32,000 nt of DNA from Acaryochloris marina MBIC11017 (GTDB lineage: Bacteria > Cyanobacteriota > Cyanobacteriia > Thermosynechococcales > Thermosynechococcaceae), in the NCBI RefSeq assembly GCF_000018105.1, contig NC_009925.1, forward strand, positions 2,250,001 through 2,282,000, in the 5' to 3' direction. The notes below the pieces were generated by a model that searched no databases, was not told where the DNA came from, and saw nothing but the letters and a program-made list of their open reading frames with translations. Positions 3,648 to 30,710 of the stretch are shown here, one piece after another. The position numbers and the translations under genes are program-made. Position 1 is the first letter of the stretch; each line of letters starts with the position of its first letter.

Positions 3648-4310
3648 CTAAGCCGGTGGCTCAGCATGATGTTTGATCCAGCTTTTGAGTTCTCTTAGGG
3701 CCTGGGCCTCACCGGCCGTTTTGCCCTGTTGCAAAAAGTGATAGAAAACCTCTTTCGGTACCCACGGGAAGGTGGGACTAGCATCAACCTCTCGGTACTG
3801 ATCCTGCTCAAGCTGGTAGATGGTCAATACTGAGCCGTTAAATCGCCAAAACTCGGGTACACCAAAACTGGCGTAGAGATTATTTTTATCGATATCTGCA
3901 TGGGTAATATCGACTTCTACTACTAAGTCAGGGGGCGGATCTTTTTCTAAATCAACAGTTCTACCTCGCACGAGGGGTTCATTTTGGATGTAATAGCATT
4001 TGTCTGGTTCGGCTCCTTTCTGTAAGGATTGGCGGCGGAGGGTGGTTGAAGCCATGCTTTTAATATTGAGACCGCTGTCAATCACTAGTGCTTTGATAAA
4101 GTCGCCAATCACATCACTGGGATTTTCATGGGCTTCTAAAGGAACCATAAATTCTAGTAGACCTAGGTCATAGTGCAACCGCGCAGCTCGATGTTCGCCA
4201 AAGGCATTCAGTAATTGTTCATAGGTGTCCCAAGACACATTCATCAAGATGAGGCGCTGCTCAGCAGGCTTTGTGTCGATCGTTTCAGTTACAGGTAGCT
4301 GAGTTTGCAT
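3648..4310 (-). CDS. Uma2-family (DUF820) restriction-endonuclease-like protein
   Basis: 220 aa. Typical Uma2 layout: SWDTYEQLL..., RLHYDLGLLEFMVP, EPDKCYY, PPDLVVEVDITH, ...YASFGVPEFWRF. The family is very abundant in cyanobacteria. Confidence 0.85.
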   Translation of the reverse strand: MQTQLPVTETIDTKPAEQRLILMNVSWDTYEQLLNAFGEHRAARLHYDLGLLEFMVPLEAHENPSDVIGDFIKALVIDSGLNIKSMASTTLRRQSLQKGAEPDKCYYIQNEPLVRGRTVDLEKDPPPDLVVEVDITHADIDKNNLYASFGVPEFWRFNGSVLTIYQLEQDQYREVDASPTFPWVPKEVFYHFLQQGKTAGEAQALRELKSWIKHHAEPPA

Positions 4311-4368
4311 GATCTCTAGACTCCTGAGTCTTCACCTCCTCCAGCATAAGCGGTGAAATTTATGTTGC

Positions 4369-4398
4369 AAAAAAAATCACTCATCTATAAGAGATGAG
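4369..4398 (-). terminator. Rho-independent terminator, minus strand
   Basis: Plus strand has A8 (4369-4376), then a 7-bp stem CTCATCT/AGATGAG (4380-4386 / 4392-4398) with a 5-nt loop. On the minus strand this is a hairpin followed by T8. Confidence 0.5.
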
Positions 4399-4436
4399 CG
4401 AGAGGAGAGTTTTGATACCCAATGAGAGAGAAGAAA

Positions 4437-4643
4437 TTATGAACAAGCTTCAGGTGCTGAATATGGCATTGTGTTTGGGCGATTAAAAATGAGATCAAAG
4501 TCTATGCTTTTCATTGTCTGAACAGGTGTGGAGCCCGTTTGTTGAGTGTAAGCAACCATTTGCTCCACTGGAGAATATGCTTCAGTTCTAAGGGCAGAAC
4601 CGAGTACTTTGCCTGCGATCGCAAATGAAATAAGGACAAGCAT
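4437..4643 (-). CDS. Possible small membrane/secreted protein (68 aa)
   Basis: ORF with a hydrophobic N-terminus (MLVLISFAIAGKVLGSAL). It ends ~40 nt upstream of the minus-strand terminator at 4369-4398. No homology recognised; it may instead be a non-coding transcript. Confidence 0.25.
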   Translation of the reverse strand: MLVLISFAIAGKVLGSALRTEAYSPVEQMVAYTQQTGSTPVQTMKSIDFDLIFNRPNTMPYSAPEACS

Positions 4644-8939: not shown

Positions 8940-9431
8940 TTAATGGCGTGTCACATGTCCACCGATGATGTTCAGCAAATCTTTACGACTGCGCTCCACC
9001 TCTACCCAGAAACTCATCCAGAAGATGAATAGCACAAATAAAGGCAATCCCAAGACCAGTAAAGCTTCAGAATTAGCCACCTCCCCTGACAAGCCGATTG
9101 CTAAAGCACCACTGTAAAAAGAGAGAAACCACATCACTAGAAAGCTCATAACAAAAGGGTGAAGCTTCATAGAGATATGCACGACCGTTCCCCCTGCAGG
9201 TGTCTCAAAACGGCCTTTGATTTGGGGAATAAACGAGTTACGTCCCTGGGGAATTCGGTGCATCGTAAAGCCCGATTCTGAAACAGATCCTTCATAAGGG
9301 GCATGGTTGCGTTGATAGGACCATCGAAATGCCTTCGGAGCTTCTACATGAGCGTCCAGGCTTGCTATAACGTTTGGCAATGCAACGGGTGTCCGGATGA
9401 TAAAGCGATCCTGCGGTAAAAGGTGAACCAT
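8940..9431 (-). CDS. Membrane protein, paralog B of a tandem pair
   Basis: The track ORF starts at 9440 (MIIMVHLL). Alignment with paralog A supports a start at MVHLL (9431). It lacks the C-terminal extra TM of paralog A. Confidence 0.7.
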   Translation of the reverse strand: MVHLLPQDRFIIRTPVALPNVIASLDAHVEAPKAFRWSYQRNHAPYEGSVSESGFTMHRIPQGRNSFIPQIKGRFETPAGGTVVHISMKLHPFVMSFLVMWFLSFYSGALAIGLSGEVANSEALLVLGLPLFVLFIFWMSFWVEVERSRKDLLNIIGGHVTRH

Positions 9432-10004: not shown

Positions 10005-10868
10005 ATGAGTAGCGACTATACGCCCCCCAAAGTTTGGCAATGGGATTCTGAAAGTGGGGGGACTTGGGCCAAGATTAACCGCCCCATTGCAGGGCCAACC
10101 CATGAGCAAGACTTGCCCGTGGGTAAACATCCTTTGCAGCTCTATTCCATGGCAACCCCCAACGGCCAAAAAGTCACCATCATACTAGAAGAACTGTTGG
10201 CATTGGGTGAGGCTGGGGCTGAATACGATGCCCATTTAATCAAAATTGGAGATGGCGATCAGTTTGGCAGTGGATTTGTGGATGTTAATCCCAACTCCAA
10301 AATTCCGGCTCTTGTAGACCACTCCACTTCAACCCCAGCTCGCGTCTTTGAATCTGGAGCTATCCTCCTATACCTAGCAGAAAAATTCGGCCAGCTCCTA
10401 CCCACAGAACATGCAGCTCGCACCGAATGTTTGTCCTGGTTATTTTGGCAGATGGGTTCAGCGCCCTATCTGGGAGGGGGATTTGGTCATTTTTATAGCT
10501 ATGCTCCCGCCAAAATTGAATATTGCATCAACCGTTTCACCATGGAGGTGAAGCGCCAGCTTGACGTCCTGAATCGTCATCTTGAAACCCACTCATTTAT
10601 GGCTGGCGACGATTACTCAATTGCTGATATTGCCATCTGGCCTTGGTATGGCGGGGTAATTCGCAATACTCTATACGATGCCGCAGAGTTTATCGATGCC
10701 CCCTCTTATACCCATGTGGTTCGCTGGGCTCAGAATATCGCTGATCGCCCAGCAGTCCAGCGGGGCCGCATGGTCAACCGCACTTGGGGAGCCTTGTCAG
10801 AACAGCTCCATGAACGCCATGATGCCGGTGATTTTAATATTAAGACGCAGGATAAGCTTAACCCGTAG
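10005..10868 (+). CDS. yghU: YghU-type (Nu-class) glutathione S-transferase / GSH-dependent disulfide oxidoreductase
   Basis: 287 aa. YTPPKVWQWD...GGTWAKINRPIAGPTHEQDLPVGKHPLQLYSMATPNGQKVTI..EEL and DGDQFGSGFVDVNPNSKIPALVD are characteristic of YghU/YfcG-like GSTs. Confidence 0.85.
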   Translation: MSSDYTPPKVWQWDSESGGTWAKINRPIAGPTHEQDLPVGKHPLQLYSMATPNGQKVTIILEELLALGEAGAEYDAHLIKIGDGDQFGSGFVDVNPNSKIPALVDHSTSTPARVFESGAILLYLAEKFGQLLPTEHAARTECLSWLFWQMGSAPYLGGGFGHFYSYAPAKIEYCINRFTMEVKRQLDVLNRHLETHSFMAGDDYSIADIAIWPWYGGVIRNTLYDAAEFIDAPSYTHVVRWAQNIADRPAVQRGRMVNRTWGALSEQLHERHDAGDFNIKTQDKLNP

Positions 10869-12175: not shown

Positions 12176-12565
12176 TTACAACACCTGGCTGGCAATCATG
12201 CCCATGCCGATCAAAGAGCCACCAAACGCAAAGCTACGCACCACGGGCACGCCAAAAACATACAGGGGCAAATAGACCACTCGACTCCAAAAATAGAGCC
12301 AGGCCCCTACGGCACTAACGCCATTGGTGTGGCCTGTCGCCTGCACCAGCAGCAATAAACCCAATGCCCAAGGCAAGGTCTCTTTGAAATTATGGTTGGC
12401 TCGCTCGCCTCGAATGCCATAGGTATTCTGGCGAGGGGGTAAATTATCGCGGGGACCGAGCAGGACCATTGGCCCAACTTCAAAAATCCTGGTCATTGAA
12501 CCAATGCCAAGGTGAATCATGGCCAAGATCAGCGTCAGCAGGAAAACAGTTGTTTCGGGGGTCAT
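12176..12565 (-). CDS. MAPEG-family membrane protein
   Basis: 129 aa, multi-TM. The R.ERA.HNF.ETLP motif is typical of MAPEG (microsomal GST-like) proteins. Confidence 0.75.
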   Translation of the reverse strand: MTPETTVFLLTLILAMIHLGIGSMTRIFEVGPMVLLGPRDNLPPRQNTYGIRGERANHNFKETLPWALGLLLLVQATGHTNGVSAVGAWLYFWSRVVYLPLYVFGVPVVRSFAFGGSLIGMGMIASQVL

Positions 12566-18028: not shown

Positions 18029-18102
18029 CGGGGCGTAGCGCAGCTTGGTAGCGCACCACTTTGGGGTAGTGGGGGTCGTGGGTTCAAATCCCGCCGCTCC
18101 GA
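18029..18102 (+). tRNA. tRNA-Pro (anticodon GGG)
   Basis: Hand-folded 74-nt cloverleaf: acceptor CGGGGCG/CGCTCCG, D-stem GCGC/GCGC, anticodon stem CCACT/AGTGG, loop TTGGGGT (anticodon GGG), T-arm GTGGG-TTCAAAT-CCCGC, discriminator A. No encoded CCA. Confidence 0.9.
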
Positions 18103-18104
18103 TT
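18056..18104 (+). repeat. attL: 49-bp direct repeat (3' half of tRNA-Pro from the anticodon stem, plus 2 nt)
   Basis: CCACTTTGGGGTAGTGGGGGTCGTGGGTTCAAATCCCGCCGCTCCGATT is identical at 30655-30703. Confidence 0.85.
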
Positions 18105-18220
18105 GACTGTAATTCTTATATCTGGCAAGGCTTGAAGGCTACTGATACTAGCTTTCAGGTCTATTTTTGTGCAATCAATATGCATTGAAATAAGTCCGTT
18201 AAAGCTGGTTAGTCGTTTAG

Positions 18221-18244
18221 TTGGCCGGATAGATTGGCCGGAAG
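18221..18244 (+). promoter_or_regulatory. Candidate integrase arm-type site (TTGGCCGGA x2), attL side
   Basis: TTGGCCGGATAGATTGGCCGGAAG lies 10 nt upstream of the integrase GTG. An identical 24-mer is at 30575-30598. Confidence 0.4.
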
Positions 18245-18253
18245 GATTAACCT

Positions 18254-19363
18254 GTGAAAAGTAGAGATAAAGTGCAGGTCACCAGTGATAGGGGGATGCT
18301 AAGACTCCGGTGGACATATATAGATAAACGTCAGAGCCTCAACCTTGGATTAGAAAATACCCGGATTAATAGGACTTATGCCAATGGCATTGCTAGGCAA
18401 ATAGCAGAAGATATTAGATGTGGTGAATACGATGTCACCAAAAATAAGTACAGGCCCAAGCTGATTGGTAATTCTGGCTTAAACTGCTCAGAGTTATTTG
18501 ATAAGTTCACAACCTACAAACAACACGATTTAGGCATCTCCCCTCGATCTGTTGAAACAAGATATATTCCGTTATCCAGGGCTTTAAACAAATGGTTAGA
18601 TATGCCTGCTCATGAGGTCACTAAAGATCATGCTAGGCACTTCATGAGTATCCAAAGTGAGCATGTCACCGCTGACACTGCTAAAGCCAGAATTGGATTA
18701 TTGGGAAGCTGTTGGAAGTGGGCCATACAAGAAGAACTATTAGCCACAGATAATCCTTGGGTTGGCTTGAGAGTAGCTCTTAAACCTCAACCAACTCAAC
18801 GAGTGAAACCCTTCAATCGAGAAGAAATCAAGGCTATCTTGTCCGAGTTTAGGAATAATCGCTATTACTCACATTATTCAGACTTTGTGATTTTCCTATT
18901 TGGTGTAGGTTGTCGGTTTGGAGAAGCAGCAGGATTACTGTGGAAGCATATTGCAGATGATTTCCAAACAGTCTGGATAGGAGAAAGCGTTTCTAGAGGC
19001 TATCGGAAAAGCACTAAGACTGGAAAGGCGAGGACGATAGTGCTATCCCCAAACGTACAATCGATGCTTAAAGCGCGATACGAAAGGCTGAAGCCTAATC
19101 TCGAAGATTTAGTTTTCCCTAGTCCACAAGGGTTACCAATATGCGATCGCAGTTTTAGAAGACGGGCGTGGAAAACAGTTCTAATTAAATGTGGCATTGA
19201 ATATCGAAAACCCTATGCAATAAGGCATTCCGCAGTTAGCCATGCACTAGCTAGTGGTGCTGATCCAATCAGTGTTGCTGAGCAAAGTGGGCACGATAAG
19301 AGAGTAATGCTGGAAAGCTATGCCCATGTCATTCAACCCCAGAGCGTTTTTATAGAGTTTTAG
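18254..19363 (+). CDS. Tyrosine-type site-specific integrase (phage integrase family)
   Basis: 369 aa, GTG start. N-terminal arm-binding-like VQVTSDRGMLRLRWTY. Catalytic signature: RFGEAAGLLW (R), AIRHSAVS (HxxR), GHDKRVMLESYAH (H...Y). Confidence 0.9.
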   Translation: MKSRDKVQVTSDRGMLRLRWTYIDKRQSLNLGLENTRINRTYANGIARQIAEDIRCGEYDVTKNKYRPKLIGNSGLNCSELFDKFTTYKQHDLGISPRSVETRYIPLSRALNKWLDMPAHEVTKDHARHFMSIQSEHVTADTAKARIGLLGSCWKWAIQEELLATDNPWVGLRVALKPQPTQRVKPFNREEIKAILSEFRNNRYYSHYSDFVIFLFGVGCRFGEAAGLLWKHIADDFQTVWIGESVSRGYRKSTKTGKARTIVLSPNVQSMLKARYERLKPNLEDLVFPSPQGLPICDRSFRRRAWKTVLIKCGIEYRKPYAIRHSAVSHALASGADPISVAEQSGHDKRVMLESYAHVIQPQSVFIEF

Positions 19364-20633: not shown

Positions 20634-22202
20634 GTGAATAAAGTGAATTCTTCAACAAATAATCCACAAAATTTTTCTAGCATACTTGATGTTGCGATAG
20701 GGTATCTAGACTTAGGTTCGTCACCTCTACCAGTGGCACCAAAACAGCCTAATTCCAATTTTAATGGGAAAAATCCAAGCTATTTAGATGAACAAGGTAA
20801 GGCTTATCTAATTAGTAGCAAGCAATATCAGAATAAGCAACCAACTCGTACAGAGATAGATCTATGGTTTGCTAACCCTGAAAATGGCATTGGAATCCTT
20901 GGTAATAATCACTTGCATATAGTTGATGTCGATACCAAGCATTTCGATAGTAAGGAAGTATGTGAGCAAGTCGTTAATAAATGGCTGGATAAGCATTCTC
21001 AACTGCATGATGCTCAGGTAGAAAGAACTCTTAGTGATGGCTTCCACATATATGTAGAGTTTGCAGAGCCACCAGGGTTTACACGCTTTGCTTTTAGTGA
21101 GGGTGGATCACACGTAGGGGAGATCCAAGGGCCAAATCAGTTCACTGTCGTGGCACCCACTGTTGGTTACCAGGTAGTACAGAAAGGTAGATTCGCCCCT
21201 GTCATCGATGCTGAGTCTATTGGGCTGTACTCAATCAAGAAGGCTAAGAAAGCTAAAGCAAGCAGGTCTGATCAAGTCCAGAAAACAGTAAGAATCAAGC
21301 CAGAAAATAGTGATGCTTTATCCCTGCTGGAATTATCCACAAGGGGGGTCCAGGCAATATACCAAAGTCAACCTGAGTCTGATGATAGGAGTAAAGACAT
21401 CACCAAAGTTGCTAACGAGCTTTATGGTTGGGCAAATTGGTGTGAAGCAAATAACCTGGCTTATGATCCAGAGCCTCGAACTCTCCTTGTGGATCTTGCA
21501 TCTAACTTGGACATTGATGAGGACAGATTAGACAGAATCATTGATTCCATAGACATTGATGACTGTCAACCAGCTTGTGTATATGAAGGGGGAGATGAGG
21601 CAGCTTGGAAGAAGATCAAGAAGCTATCAGTAGATGTGGAACTAGAGGAAGTTACCACAAAAATATTGATAGACAGCACAATCATAAAGCCTCCCCAACT
21701 CTTTCATAAATCGTTATATGGCCCACTCAGTGATCTTGCATCAAATCTTGAGTTACCAGTAGAAGCTTTTCTTGTTTGTATTCTTCCTATCCTGGCTTCA
21801 AGGCTTAAGGCTGAGACAAGGCTAATAATCGATCCAGGAACTGGCTACCATGTACCGCCAATCATTTGGGCTGGTTTAGTAGGTGAATCAGGAACCATGA
21901 AAAGCCCCATTCTTAAGCTCCTCACTAGACCTTTGTCGAGGTTGCAACAAGAAGTCCACGAGAGCTATCAACTGGAAGTCTCTGAGTATGAAAAGGATTT
22001 GCAACGGTTTCAGTCTCGGTCCAAAAAACTACCTATCACCCCAGAAAAACCTAAGCATCCCAACATGAGAGATTTATTTTTCTCTGACTTTACGATTGAG
22101 GCCATTGCCGATTCCATCTGTCATCATCCATCAGAAGGCTATCTAATCCATATAGATGAGTTGGCTGGATTCTTTAAATCGATGGATGCCTATCGTAATT
22201 GA
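20634..22202 (+). CDS. Prim-Pol (bifunctional primase/polymerase) N-terminal domain plus the start of a DUF3987/YfjI-like helicase domain; ends at an in-frame TGA
   Basis: Prim-Pol motifs HIVDVDTKH (DxD) and SDGFHIYVEF. Later P-loop-like GLVGESGTMKSP. The same frame continues open after TGA 22200-22202. Confidence 0.75.
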   Translation: MNKVNSSTNNPQNFSSILDVAIGYLDLGSSPLPVAPKQPNSNFNGKNPSYLDEQGKAYLISSKQYQNKQPTRTEIDLWFANPENGIGILGNNHLHIVDVDTKHFDSKEVCEQVVNKWLDKHSQLHDAQVERTLSDGFHIYVEFAEPPGFTRFAFSEGGSHVGEIQGPNQFTVVAPTVGYQVVQKGRFAPVIDAESIGLYSIKKAKKAKASRSDQVQKTVRIKPENSDALSLLELSTRGVQAIYQSQPESDDRSKDITKVANELYGWANWCEANNLAYDPEPRTLLVDLASNLDIDEDRLDRIIDSIDIDDCQPACVYEGGDEAAWKKIKKLSVDVELEEVTTKILIDSTIIKPPQLFHKSLYGPLSDLASNLELPVEAFLVCILPILASRLKAETRLIIDPGTGYHVPPIIWAGLVGESGTMKSPILKLLTRPLSRLQQEVHESYQLEVSEYEKDLQRFQSRSKKLPITPEKPKHPNMRDLFFSDFTIEAIADSICHHPSEGYLIHIDELAGFFKSMDAYRN

Positions 22203-22310
22203 AAAGGGGCTGATAGGCAGAGGTGGTTAACTTTTTATGGTGGGGACTCTCTCAAAGTTAATCGAAAATCTTCTGAGCCGATCTATATCCCTAAAACCTC
22301 AATCAGTTTA

Positions 22311-23219
22311 TTGGGAAGTATTCAGCCTTCAGTGTTAGGGAAATTGGTATTAGATGATCCCACATCGGAAGATGGCCTCTGGCCCAGATTCCTGTGGTTT
22401 CGTCTGCCAATAACAACTCCACCAGGAATCTCAGATAGGCCGAAGCTTGATTTAATGCCCTTACTGAAAGGTGTTTACTGTGGCCTAAATGAGCTTGATG
22501 CCCAAGAGCACCGACTTTCAAGGGGAGCAATAGGGGTATGGAATCAGTGGAATCATGAGATAGGCCAGCTTATCCAACAAGAACCATCCAATATTCTCAG
22601 AGCTATATATCCAAAGTTCAAGGAGATTGCAGGCCGAATTGCCCTCATTGTTCACACCACAAATTGGGTATTAGACCAGTTAACTCTCACAGAGGGTTCA
22701 TCTACTTTTGAGGAGTCCATTATCCCTGGAATCCGGCCAATAGAGAGTGAGATCTCTGCAGAAACACTCACTGATGCTATTCAATTCACCAAATGGCTCA
22801 TGGGTCAAACTAGAAGCCTCTACTGTGAACTTGGATTATCAGACAAGGAATCATCCAGAGTTGTCAGATGCATCAATCGTTTTAGGGGATGTGGATGGAT
22901 TAAGGCTAGAACCATTACTCAATGGTGGGGGTCTACATCAAGACCTAAGGTTCAACAGGCACGAGAGTTTATGAGTCAAATTGTTGCACTGGGATATGCC
23001 ATTGATAATGGTAAGTCAGTGAATGATTCCAAATACCAAATCAAAATCACCGTACCTACAAGCCAATCCACACTTAATGCAGTAGGTGGTAAAAGTGTTG
23101 GTACGAGTTGGGAAGAAGTTGGCCACCATCCCAACAGGCTTAAAGCCATAGAGGAAAGTAGTTCCAGGGATTCTGTTGGTAATGTTGGCACATTTCTAGA
23201 ACAGAAGGTCAACAGATAG
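22311..23219 (+). CDS. C-terminal part of the DUF3987-like primase-helicase (same frame as 20634..22202)
   Basis: The frame is open from 22203 (KGADRQRWLTFYGGDSLKVNRKSSEPIYIPKTSISLLGSIQP...). It has no convincing start of its own. 22311-20634 is divisible by 3. Confidence 0.65.
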   Translation: MGSIQPSVLGKLVLDDPTSEDGLWPRFLWFRLPITTPPGISDRPKLDLMPLLKGVYCGLNELDAQEHRLSRGAIGVWNQWNHEIGQLIQQEPSNILRAIYPKFKEIAGRIALIVHTTNWVLDQLTLTEGSSTFEESIIPGIRPIESEISAETLTDAIQFTKWLMGQTRSLYCELGLSDKESSRVVRCINRFRGCGWIKARTITQWWGSTSRPKVQQAREFMSQIVALGYAIDNGKSVNDSKYQIKITVPTSQSTLNAVGGKSVGTSWEEVGHHPNRLKAIEESSSRDSVGNVGTFLEQKVNR

Positions 23220-23276
23220 TCTACATACCGTGGTCAGAATTTCCTGCTCACTACTACGGTCTTAGGGAGGTGTGTG

Positions 23277-23864
23277 ATGACGACCTCTAAACCATTTCTC
23301 AACCACATAACCACTGTGGGGGAGACTGATTACCCTACTGTAAGTTTTGAAGATGATCTCATAAGACTTAAGTATCCTGATGGCTCCACAAAATGTATAC
23401 CTAGTTTTGCATTCAAGAGCTGGTATCTAACTCTTCCCCCCTATGACTTCTCTGATTCCACTGAAAGTTTGGGTGCTATTGCATTAGGACCTGCAGGGAA
23501 AGGGGCAATTATCACCGATGTGGACGATTCTTGGGTTACTGTCAGATACCCCAATGGCACATCTAGGAAGCTATCAAGGAGAGGTTTCATAGAGTGCCAG
23601 AGAATCAAATCCACTACATTTAAGGTGGGTGATTGGGTTCTAGCTATGCTTAAGGACCTGACCTGGGTAACAGTTCAAATACTTAGCCTAGACACCCCCA
23701 CAAAGGTTATAGAAGGTGAATCCTATACCTATATTCAGGGTTGTGGGTTCAGAGCCAAAATACTAAGTAAGCCTAAGTCTATATGGAGTATTCAAATTCC
23801 CGTTCAGATTATGTGGCCTCGTAAACCACCTAATATGCAAGGGCTTGATTACTCTCTTACTTAG
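23277..23864 (+). CDS. Hypothetical island protein with internally repeated DD....YP[DN]G[ST] modules
   Basis: GGGAGG lies 6 nt upstream of ATG 23277. Repeats: FEDDLIRLKYPDGSTK and VDDSWVTVRYPNGTSR. Confidence 0.6.
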   Translation: MTTSKPFLNHITTVGETDYPTVSFEDDLIRLKYPDGSTKCIPSFAFKSWYLTLPPYDFSDSTESLGAIALGPAGKGAIITDVDDSWVTVRYPNGTSRKLSRRGFIECQRIKSTTFKVGDWVLAMLKDLTWVTVQILSLDTPTKVIEGESYTYIQGCGFRAKILSKPKSIWSIQIPVQIMWPRKPPNMQGLDYSLT

Positions 23865-23868
23865 AATG

Positions 23869-24064
23869 TGCCAACAATACCAACAAAAAACTTGAAAGTA
23901 CTGCCAGATAAAGGTTTAACCCTGTTGGCAAGCAATTCAACAACTACCCAACAGGTACCAACAAATTCTTCTTCGGATTAATTGTTGGTATTTGTTGGCA
24001 TCTATACCAACACACCAAAGTCAGTAAGAGAAATGGTCTCAGCGTTTTGTTGGCAATGTTGGTA
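23869..24064. repeat. Iteron cluster: nine perfect copies of the octamer TGTTGGYA in both orientations (putative island origin)
   Basis: Forward copies at 23923, 23983, 23993, 24048 and 24057. Reverse copies (TRCCAACA) at 23869, 23878, 23956 and 24005. An AT-rich tract follows (24070-24190). Confidence 0.6.
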
Positions 24065-24256
24065 TGTTTTCCAGGATCTAATAAAACAATCTTAATAATT
24101 AAACATACGCAAACAAGAAAATATTTGAGCTGGAATTTTCATATATACTCATTTCATTAAATCAATTTGAGTATTTATTATCCTAAACACGCTAGTCCAA
24201 AACTACGCACTTTCAGTGCGAGACTTTAGTTGCTACACATCTCCAATGCAGGATAA

Positions 24257-24604
24257 AGAAGTAGTATCAAGAAGTCTATAGTCGAGAATCATCTGGGAAA
24301 TTATGCTGTCACCCGCTTAACTATATTAAAAGGGATGGTCAGTAAAGATCATGATCATACGCTAATTGAATATCCCCCATCGAAATCGATCAGTGACATA
24401 GCCAAGCGGTTGAAAGGGTTCACATCAAGGCGACTTCAGCAAGAGTATCGAGAGTTAGAGCGGCGATATTGGGATAAATATCTGTGGGCCTTAGGTTATG
24501 GAGCCTGGAGTACAGGTAATATCAGTGAACAGATGGTGGAGGAATATTTGGAGCATCACCGTCTCGTGTCTAATAACGATATAAATACGTTCATGCTGGA
24601 GTGA
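24257..24604 (+). pseudogene. 5'-truncated IS200/IS605-family TnpA (Y1 HUH transposase) remnant
   Basis: ...YAVTRLTILKGMVSKDHDHTLIEYPPSKSISDIAKRLKGFTSRRLQQEYRELERRYWDKYLWALGYGAWSTGNISEQMVEEYLEHH matches the C-terminal ~2/3 of TnpA. The HUH motif is degenerate (HDH) and the N-terminal ~35 aa are missing. Flanking hairpins at 24206-24220 and 24657-24671. Confidence 0.65.
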
Positions 24605-24728
24605 ATCAAGACTTTAGTCCTGAGAAGAATCGGACATTAAGTCCATCAATGACCTCTGTGCTTTCAGTACAAATTCGTTAAGTTTTTCTAGATTAGTTGT
24701 TTAAATTTCTCACTACTAGAATGGTGAA

Positions 24729-29070: not shown

Positions 29071-29637
29071 TCAATGGGGTCTAACCCAGTTATGAATCAG
29101 CCGTTGTACGTCTAGCACTCTCTGAAAACCCGACTGCTTCTTAGCGTAGAGATTCTGCCTTTTTCGATAAGCACTACATCGTCTCCTCAAGGCAGCATTG
29201 TGAGCCTCGTTGTGATTGGCATGGACCTCAGATGCTGGACTGATAGCGGTAAAGGGATGCTCTGCTTTCACCCACTTCACCCACTTCACTCGCCGATTCG
29301 CCTGAAATCCTTTAACTTTCATCGCGACTTCTAATCCGTCTCGCCAAACCTTGCGATGCCCATAATCAGGGTGACACTCCTCAGCGTTGAGAGAGACACT
29401 GGCGAGCTTCCAAAGTTCTTGTCCATAGCGTCTTTCTCCATCAGTAAACCATTGAATCCCATCACAGGTTTTCATCCACTCCCAAGCTGATTGAACGCCA
29501 TCAATAAAGAGTTGTTGATCCTTGAGACCAGCCTGTGCTGTAAACCAATAACGGCTCGCGCGCTCAAGGAAGTGGATGGTCCAGCCCTGGGACTGGCTAG
29601 AGGGGAAGATTTTCGCATACACGAGTGTAAACTTCAT
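29071..29637 (-). CDS. IS1 InsB-like DDE transposase catalytic part (+1 frame relative to InsA)
   Basis: WFTDGERRY (second D) and HANHNEAHNAALRRRCSAYRKRQNLYAKK (E region) parallel IS1 InsB MTDGWPLY / IERHNLNLRQHLARL. 41-nt overlap with the InsA frame. Confidence 0.75.
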   Translation of the reverse strand: MKFTLVYAKIFPSSQSQGWTIHFLERASRYWFTAQAGLKDQQLFIDGVQSAWEWMKTCDGIQWFTDGERRYGQELWKLASVSLNAEECHPDYGHRKVWRDGLEVAMKVKGFQANRRVKWVKWVKAEHPFTAISPASEVHANHNEAHNAALRRRCSAYRKRQNLYAKKQSGFQRVLDVQRLIHNWVRPH

Positions 29638-29968
29638 CCCCTTCTACCGTCACATCAGAACTTGCTGGAGCTGGGGGTGACCAGTTCAGTGCCTGATCTG
29701 CTAGGTGCTTTTCCCACCGCATAATGGTGGTATGAGATGTCCCAAAAGTACGACCCGTTGCACGGACTCCCATTCCTTTGGTGCGAGCCTTGATGGCATA
29801 GCTCACCACTAAACTGGTGGTGCGTAAGCGAGCCATTGGGTTACCTGTGCGTTCTTTGAAACGCCGATTGCAATCCTCACACTGATATCGCTGGACTAGT
29901 GTCCCATCTTGCAGGCTATCAAAGCCTCGTTTATGGATCTTCTGGCTCTGGCAGCATGGGCATTCCAT
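29597..29968 (-). CDS. IS1 InsA-like (zinc finger plus HTH) ORF
   Basis: CPCC...CEDC zinc ribbon. GMGVRATGRTFGTSHTTIMRW HTH resembles IS1 InsA. It ends with GDEVYTRV (first DDE aspartate region). Confidence 0.75.
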   Translation of the reverse strand: MECPCCQSQKIHKRGFDSLQDGTLVQRYQCEDCNRRFKERTGNPMARLRTTSLVVSYAIKARTKGMGVRATGRTFGTSHTTIMRWEKHLADQALNWSPPAPASSDVTVEGDEVYTRVCENLPL

Positions 29969-30574: not shown

Positions 30575-30598
30575 TTGGCCGGATAGATTGGCCGGAAG
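30575..30598 (+). promoter_or_regulatory. Candidate integrase arm-type site (TTGGCCGGA x2), attR side
   Basis: Identical 24-mer to 18221-18244 in the same orientation, 56 nt before the attR core. Confidence 0.4.
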
Positions 30599-30654
30599 CA
30601 TTTGGAAGAAGCCTTGTAAGTCTTGCTAGACAAAGATTTTGTAGATCATGTGAC

Positions 30655-30703
30655 CCACTTTGGGGTAGTGGGGGTCGTGGGTTCAAATCCCGCCGCTCCG
30701 ATT
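30655..30703 (+). repeat. attR: displaced 3' half of tRNA-Pro (49-bp direct repeat)
   Basis: Identical to 18056-18104. The preceding sequence does not complete a tRNA. Confidence 0.85.
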
Positions 30704-30710
30704 AACTTAG

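Follow-up and report, generated by a model that had tools for sequence, protein, structure and literature searches.

The 32,000-nt window analysed here (positions 2,250,001 to 2,282,000 of contig NC_009925.1, Acaryochloris marina MBIC11017) contains a 12.6-kb island bounded by a 53-nt direct repeat, D1, of the 3' end of tRNA-Pro(GGG), and this study concerns an array of TGTTGGYA octamers in and downstream of the primase-helicase gene of that island. The G+C of the island is about 0.40, as compared to about 0.51 on its left side. Its gene order is integrase, two small open reading frames (ORFs), primase-helicase, ORF196, array, IS200-type transposase fragment and variable cargo, and the host gene glgC comes after attR (Table 1). 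The primase-helicase is composed of a Prim-Pol domain (amino acids (aa) 44-184), a DUF3987 helicase, a predicted C-terminal winged helix (encoded at about 22845-23048) and a repeat-encoded tail (about 23070-23219), and the N-terminal part of its product is identical to AM1_2272 of A. marina MBIC11017. Based on the comparison of this array with those of related elements, the main array and the in-gene half-array are probably the replication origin of the island, with the octamers serving as iterons for the C-terminal winged helix of the primase-helicase.

TGTTGGYA had 13 perfect matches in the window, and 12 of them fell inside 23096-24064, within 970 bp; the sole match elsewhere was at position 10195. 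When the full 32 kb were shuffled one hundred times with the dinucleotide composition preserved, the mean was 2.16 matches and the maximum 8, and the expectation derived from these shuffles was about 0.013 per 196 bp. The octamer cluster is genuine and far above chance. The main array (23869-24064) consists of nine perfect octamers, five forward (23923, 23983, 23993, 24048 and 24057) and four reverse (23869, 23878, 23956 and 24005), and it comes to lie about 650 bp downstream of the primase-helicase gene. The other three (23096, 23174 and 23183) are in the final 125 bp of that gene. An earlier note on this DNA, made from the letters alone, had listed these twelve positions, dimers 1-2 nt apart and a chance level of about 0.01 copies per 200 bp or so; every coordinate was an exact match, four such pairs were found (23174/23183, 23869/23878, 23983/23993 and 24048/24057), and the shuffles gave nearly the same chance level. 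A degenerate site, TGTTGGGT, at 23946-23953 on the reverse strand fills in the pattern of the main array, and weaker sites are present in the gene at 23106 (+, AGTTGGGA), 23117 (+, AGTTGGCC) and 23129 (-, TGTTGGGA). No RNA family was found in the array region with Rfam, and promoter and terminator scans of the array gave nothing above chance.

Table 1. Features of the island (positions in the window) and repeats of related DUF3987 loci. Arrowheads give site orientation, and numbers between them are gaps in bp.
Feature	Position	Strand	Remarks
tRNA-Pro (GGG), integration target	18029..18102	+	ARAGORN, Rfam
attL, from tRNA-Pro 3' part	18056-18108		Direct repeat D1
Tyrosine integrase	18254..19363	+	Pfam Phage_integrase 6e-20, Arm-DNA-bind_2
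Primase-helicase gene, read as pseudogene	20634..23219	+	Pfam; translation
In-gene half-array, six sites	23096..23190	+	>>>< 44 >>; 23106, 23117 and 23129(-) weaker
ORF196, 196 aa, between two half-arrays	23277..23864	+	ATG 23277, GGGAGG ahead (good ribosome-binding site)
Left terminal iteron pair	23869..23885	-	TGTTGGTA t TGTTGGCA, outward-pointing
Inner-left cluster	23923..23963		23923 (+), 23946 (-, degenerate TGTTGGGT), 23956 (-)
Inner-right cluster	23983..24012		23983 (+), 23993 (+), 24005 (-)
Right terminal iteron pair	24048..24064	+	TGTTGGCA a TGTTGGTA, outward-pointing; conserved module ends here
AT-rich tract	24069..24190		72-80% A+T (24069-24168) vs about 60% in array
IS200-type transposase fragment	24335..24604	+	Pfam Y1_Tnp 6e-21, profile positions 48-120 only
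attR, 53-nt copy of tRNA-Pro 3' end	30655..30707	+	D1, 98% identical; right end of island
L003			Repeat TGTTGGCT
L005			Repeat TGTTACC
L006			Repeat GGTTACC
L007, L008			Repeat ATGGACTA
L015			Repeat TAGTCAC
L012, two genes on one plasmid-like contig			Repeats TGGACTA and TTGTCAGC
L016			Repeat GTTACC, just after gene
L017, two genes			Repeats TAGTGAC and TGTTGGCA

Two sister islands, L001 (8.9 kb) and L002 (9.9 kb), were obtained complete from sequencing runs, with the same att sequence at their ends. Their primases are 82% and 55% identical to that of the window, respectively, and both carry the same module with the same array at the same place, so the conservation in related islands for which the earlier note had called was indeed found. 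In the alignment of the three arrays, 167 of 196 columns are invariant; the variable ones amount to 3 of 80 in the octamers versus 26 of 116 in the spacers (Fisher p = 1.8e-4). The similarity ceases at about 24070, directly past the last octamer pair, so that the conserved module closes with the array and does not include the AT-rich tract. The terminal overlaps of the two sister contigs were uninformative as evidence for a circular episome, because both contigs break inside the att repeat. The L002 primase is 77% identical to that of the window within the winged-helix domain, well above its overall value; the comparison suggests that winged helix, tail, ORF196 and origin may be swapped between elements as one block.

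More distant relatives were reached through protein matches and contig look-ups, and 18 related gene-array pairs from islands, plasmid-like contigs and four complete cyanobacterial plasmids were compared; alignment scans of genome, metagenome and viral contig collections gave only one new locus, L008. Each pair has 7-17 copies of its own 6-8-mer. In 15 of the 18 pairs, the array lies within the 3' end of the DUF3987 gene or directly past it, and in the others it is upstream or unmapped. The array was absent only from two gene remnants truncated by insertion sequences (L010 and L014). All 17 records in the plasmid collection that match the window protein are cyanobacterial. The four plasmids examined (L019-L022) have 25-29% protein identity and arrays of 9-13 repeats, which in L020 and L021 are within the 3' end of the gene. 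In-gene sites occupy all three reading frames and both strands, which argues that the repeat is maintained as DNA and not as peptide. Two DUF3987 genes or remnants are present in each of L012/L013 (638-3211 and 6001-7266) and L017 (3-1376 and 3152-3921). The two-gene plasmid-like contigs carry ParA and Mob_Pre, or toxin-antitoxin genes, and each of their DUF3987 genes has its own array with a distinct repeat; a NACHT gene stands between the two genes of L012.

The layout of the sites is stereotyped. The five lineages L005, L006, L007, L008 and L015, whose repeats are unrelated, have exactly 12 sites in the order << 44 ><<< centre >>>< 44 >>, in which the gaps are 8-9, 44-48, 10-13, 11 and 9-10, followed by a centre of 23-54 and the mirror image. 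The main array of the window follows this layout with 10 sites (<< 44 > 24 << 26 >>< 42 >>), and the in-gene sites (>>>< 44 >>) are exactly the right half of the canonical 12-site array; the plasmid-like contigs have expanded arrays of 13-17 sites. A 99-nt inverted repeat, I1, of 72% complementarity has its arms at 23096-23194 and 23865-23963 and so brackets ORF196. These arms are the two putative half-origins, with their terminal site pairs facing ORF196, which suggests either a duplicated or rearranged origin or a two-cluster arrangement like that of phage P4. A TTTAA(C/G)CC-like extension, conserved in the arrays that use TGTTGG, precedes the single inverted site of each half-array (23914-23922 and 23137-23145 in the window, 12362-12369 and 12440-12447 in L003), and this might provide an extended contact or be recognised by a second factor.

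A similar layout is found in phage P4, for which the annotated record X51522 (L018; ori 9310-9413, crr 4291-4590) was used. P4 ori has six TGTTCACC type-1 sites, at 9310 (-), 9320 (-), 9331 (-) and 9353 (+) and, after a 43-bp gap, at 9396 (-) and 9406 (-). This arrangement of 3+1 sites, gap and pair equals one cyanobacterial half-array in counts and nearly in spacing, the successive gaps being 10, 11, 22, 43 and 10 in P4 ori and 9, 11, 13, 45 and 9 in the right half of L005. In the window, the pair, the gap of about 43 bp and the 3+1 sites were found at 23096-23190 and in each half of 23869-24064. P4 crr, which is directly 3' of the alpha gene, has site pairs 9 bp apart and then a 43-bp gap.

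A domain of about 100 aa, common to all relatives, lies C-terminal to the helicase core, and behind it comes a tail of low conservation, which in many of them is encoded by the array itself. AlphaFold2 modelling of the domain only, with 24 sequences, predicted a winged helix with the topology H1, b1, H2, H3, b2, b3 and a mean predicted local distance difference test (pLDDT) score of 82.5; an earlier model of 253 aa from 7 sequences was discarded, its C-terminal domain having a pLDDT of 29-58. The top structural matches in the PDB were all winged-helix proteins (MarR, MecI, ESCRT-II and ORC2), mostly DNA-binding repressors, and none had E <= 0.001. A Pfam search restricted to the C-terminal domain was uninformative, and the whole-protein profile had no match among the PDB sequences. 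Where H2 ends and H3 begins, the residues are alike within groups that share a repeat and different between groups: TQW goes with TGTTGG, THW with GTTACC, RDW with ATGGACTA, RAW with TAGTCAC, TRW with TAGTGAC and YRW with TTGTCAGC. This pairing predicted the repeats of two loci that were fetched later, GTTACC from THW in L016 and TGTTGGCA from TQW in L017. In L016, whose domain motif is THWSSS..ADAAR, the GTTACC array was found as predicted; L017, with the motif TQWW in a domain just 47% identical to that of the window, has 14 exact TGTTGGCA sites (16 including weaker ones) right after the gene.

The earlier note had proposed an island origin made of octamer iterons that are bound by the C-terminus of the primase-helicase, and the arrays of the relatives, the tracking between repeat and residues and the geometry of P4 ori all support this proposal. 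We infer binding, ring assembly, melting and priming in the following order. After excision of the island, primase-helicase subunits would dock on the iterons via their winged helices, and the mirror layout, in which the outward pair and the inner cluster, some 44 bp apart, recur as a mirror image beyond the centre, would place two oligomers face to face. The DNA would open near the centre of the array and be unwound by the DUF3987 helicase, with priming and the start of synthesis falling to the Prim-Pol domain. A more specific version is put forward only tentatively. Each half of 2+4 sites might be occupied by one DUF3987 hexamer through its six winged helices, so that the 12-site array would be a platform on which two rings assemble in opposed orientation, with bidirectional replication. 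A few residues of helix 2 and of the start of helix 3 might set a simple recognition code, and mutually orthogonal initiator-origin pairs might then exist over cyanobacterial islands, satellites and plasmids, with the origin in the coding tail of the initiator.

The primase-helicase gene of the window is divided by an in-frame TGA at 22200-22202 into ORFs of 522 and 302 aa. Gly is at this position in 7 of the 7 homologues aligned across it, and a single G-to-T substitution suffices to convert GGA to TGA. A 99%-identical protein from another sample is likewise called as a separate C-terminal ORF, and for these two reasons the break is probably real and shared. The Prim-Pol and DUF3987 domains that the earlier note named were found, with the correction that the gene is interrupted. 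Because the initiator gene is broken, the origin in this genome is probably silent or idle, unless an intact initiator of the same specificity comes in trans; the array is probably a relic of small practical meaning for this genome. The transposase fragments are marks of decay and rearrangement adjoining the array. Hairpins at 24206-24220 and 24631-24645 accompany the IS200-type fragment, and a second transposase fragment is present in the island at 29597-29968.

Several observations weigh against an origin served by the winged helix. The window copy may be non-functional in view of the TGA and the insertion-sequence fragment that abuts the array, and ORF196 stands between the primase-helicase gene and the main array. 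In the plasmids L019 and L022, the array lies upstream of the gene instead of at its 3' end. Since the coding region of the winged helix adjoins the array and is inherited with it, the covariation of the two is partly confounded by shared descent, and the winged helix itself is a prediction from 24 sequences. An AT-rich unwinding element is also not conserved, either beside the arrays of the relatives or at the array centres, and none was found adjacent to the array in the relatives with in-gene arrays. At 60-65% A+T, the centre of the window array does not differ from its other parts. The tract downstream of the array, which had been suggested as an unwinding element, is AT-rich as described, but as a conserved element it was rejected: it has no homologous counterpart in L001 and L002 and is absent next to the arrays of the other relatives. 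A role of this tract in the origin is doubtful.

It could be argued that the array is bound by the primase-helicase and nevertheless serves mainly in copy-number control, in incompatibility or as an auxiliary cis element, as P4 crr and the 'handcuffing' iterons of plasmids do, with true initiation elsewhere, e.g., in the in-gene half-array or the AT-rich tract. P4 requires both ori and crr, crr being the one 3' of alpha, and in the window two clusters (23096-23190 and 23869-24064) likewise flank ORF196 and are joined by I1. Two clusters are found in the window, L001 and L002, however, and in most relatives a second cluster is missing, so that the single array must supply whatever cis function is needed; we regard an auxiliary role as unlikely. 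A platform for another protein or process seems quite improbable too. A packaging (pac) site would suit the small terminase of the relative L006 and the capsid proteins of L007 and L015, a partition centromere would suit the ParA of the plasmid-like contigs, and an operator for ORF196 or a host regulator would suit the bracketing of ORF196 by half-arrays in the window lineage. But the arrays accompany the DUF3987 gene whatever else is present, each of the two DUF3987 genes in L012 and in L017 is accompanied by an array whose repeat differs from that of the other, and the repeat tracks residues in the C-terminal domain of the DUF3987 protein itself.

ORF196, which the earlier note had named as the other possible binder of the octamers, was rejected in this role: it has no DNA-binding signature, it is an orphan, and most array-bearing relatives lack it, their arrays persisting without it. 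It is conserved in L001 and L002. Among 1.84 billion cluster representatives it has one related cluster; its own sequence shows only a faint similarity to PPC repeats, and no Pfam or PHROG family was found for it. That the repeats are functionless, as a leftover duplication, a by-product of a repetitive peptide or a recombination scar, was already disfavoured and is very hard to believe. Parts of the array are indeed translated as a low-complexity tail, e.g., SVG..EVG..SVGNVG in the window, and the window island is decaying, with its TGA and insertion-sequence fragments. However, the window sites are mostly non-coding and on both strands, the coding sites are in three frames, the octamers are conserved above the spacers, and the 12-site geometry recurs with unrelated repeats. 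An origin bound by the winged helix of the primase-helicase thus accounts for the data best.

The likeness to P4 extends beyond the layout of the sites. Both elements are small and integrase-bearing, and both encode a multi-domain primase-helicase whose C-terminal winged helix is the origin binder, a prediction in our case. The 8-bp iterons begin with TGTT in both, as TGTTCACC in P4 and as TGTTGGYA or TGTTACC in the cyanobacterial elements. On the other hand, P4 has a Toprim primase and an alpha-type helicase, whereas archaeo-eukaryotic Prim-Pol and DUF3987 domains are found here; the canonical cyanobacterial array has two inverted halves in one block, often inside coding sequence; and the polarity of the sites is opposite if their orientation is set by the TGTT...ACC similarity. 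Homology to the origin-binding domain of P4 alpha was tried and rejected, with an hhalign probability of 0.1 and with 1KA8 outside the top 50 structural matches. The P4 ori/crr-like logic of the earlier note therefore holds for the site layout, more closely than had been expected, and not for the proteins. The P4-like spacing, shared in spite of non-homologous proteins, may have arisen by convergence or may go back to a deep common mode of binding.

In lambda-type origins, the iterons are within the coding sequence of the initiator itself, in a poorly conserved stretch of the protein, as with the in-gene sites here. Lambda O is neither a helicase nor a primase, and its 19-bp direct-repeat iterons are followed by an AT-rich region, in which it differs from the initiator and the array described here. 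The phage-inducible chromosomal islands (PICIs) and Staphylococcus aureus pathogenicity islands (SaPIs) have an origin, 3' of rep in the pri-rep module, of two iteron sets flanking an AT-rich melting region, and allelic initiators have their own iterons (PMC6092414). Similarly, the window has an integrase-bearing island, its own primase-helicase initiator and an iteron array, as candidate origin, next to the gene. An end integrase, an att site and a small size as in PICIs were found (tRNA-Pro, 53-nt repeats, 12.6 kb). The origin layout of PICIs was not found, as the array centre and spacers are not AT-rich and ORF196 stands between gene and main array; the array is also often in-gene and the initiator belongs to another family.

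The replicase of plasmid pRN1, ORF904, has Prim-Pol, superfamily 3 helicase and winged-helix domains, and its cis site is just downstream of the replicase gene (PMC4234260). The order of activities in one polypeptide and the position of the cis site 3' of the gene are the same as here, but in pRN1 the origin is a stem-loop of 100 nt that has no iterons, the helicase is of superfamily 3, and the host is archaeal. CyRepA proteins are cyanobacterial plasmid initiators with primase-like and helicase domains, described without mention of iterons; they were rejected as members of the same family because their domains are DUF3854 and DEXDc, not Prim-Pol and DUF3987 (PMC10079941). For one DUF3987 protein, which has a 'C-terminal small domain', 5'-to-3' helicase activity, oligomer formation and binding to a Prim-Pol have been demonstrated (PMC11724360).

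It is common for mobile elements, marine phage satellites among them, to encode a DUF3987 helicase that is fused to a Prim-Pol primase or paired with one (PMC10803314). An iteron origin is the expected kind of element for such enzymes, yet no origin was described for the Prim-Pol/DUF3987 family in the literature searched. Our comparison yields a concrete candidate cis site, a candidate origin-binding domain and a candidate specificity code, and two features deserve to be followed, the uniform arrangement of 12 sites and the location of the proposed origin within the coding tail of the initiator. Well-defined replicons are lacking in cyanobacterial genetics (PMC10079941), and compact initiator-origin cassettes of differing specificity could supply compatible cyanobacterial vectors.

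General annotation of the island proteins with Pfam and PHROG recognised no packaging gene in the window island. A small terminase gene is present in L006 (5494-6084) and a protease-capsid fusion gene in L007 (5347-7173) and L015 (2438-4297), and these genes beside the same replication module point to phage-satellite lifestyles in cyanobacteria, like those of capsid-forming PICIs. Copies of TTGGCCGGATAGATTGGCCGGAAG are found just inside both ends of the window island, upstream of the integrase gene (18221-18248) and before attR (30575-30602), and they are likely to be arm-type binding sites of the integrase.

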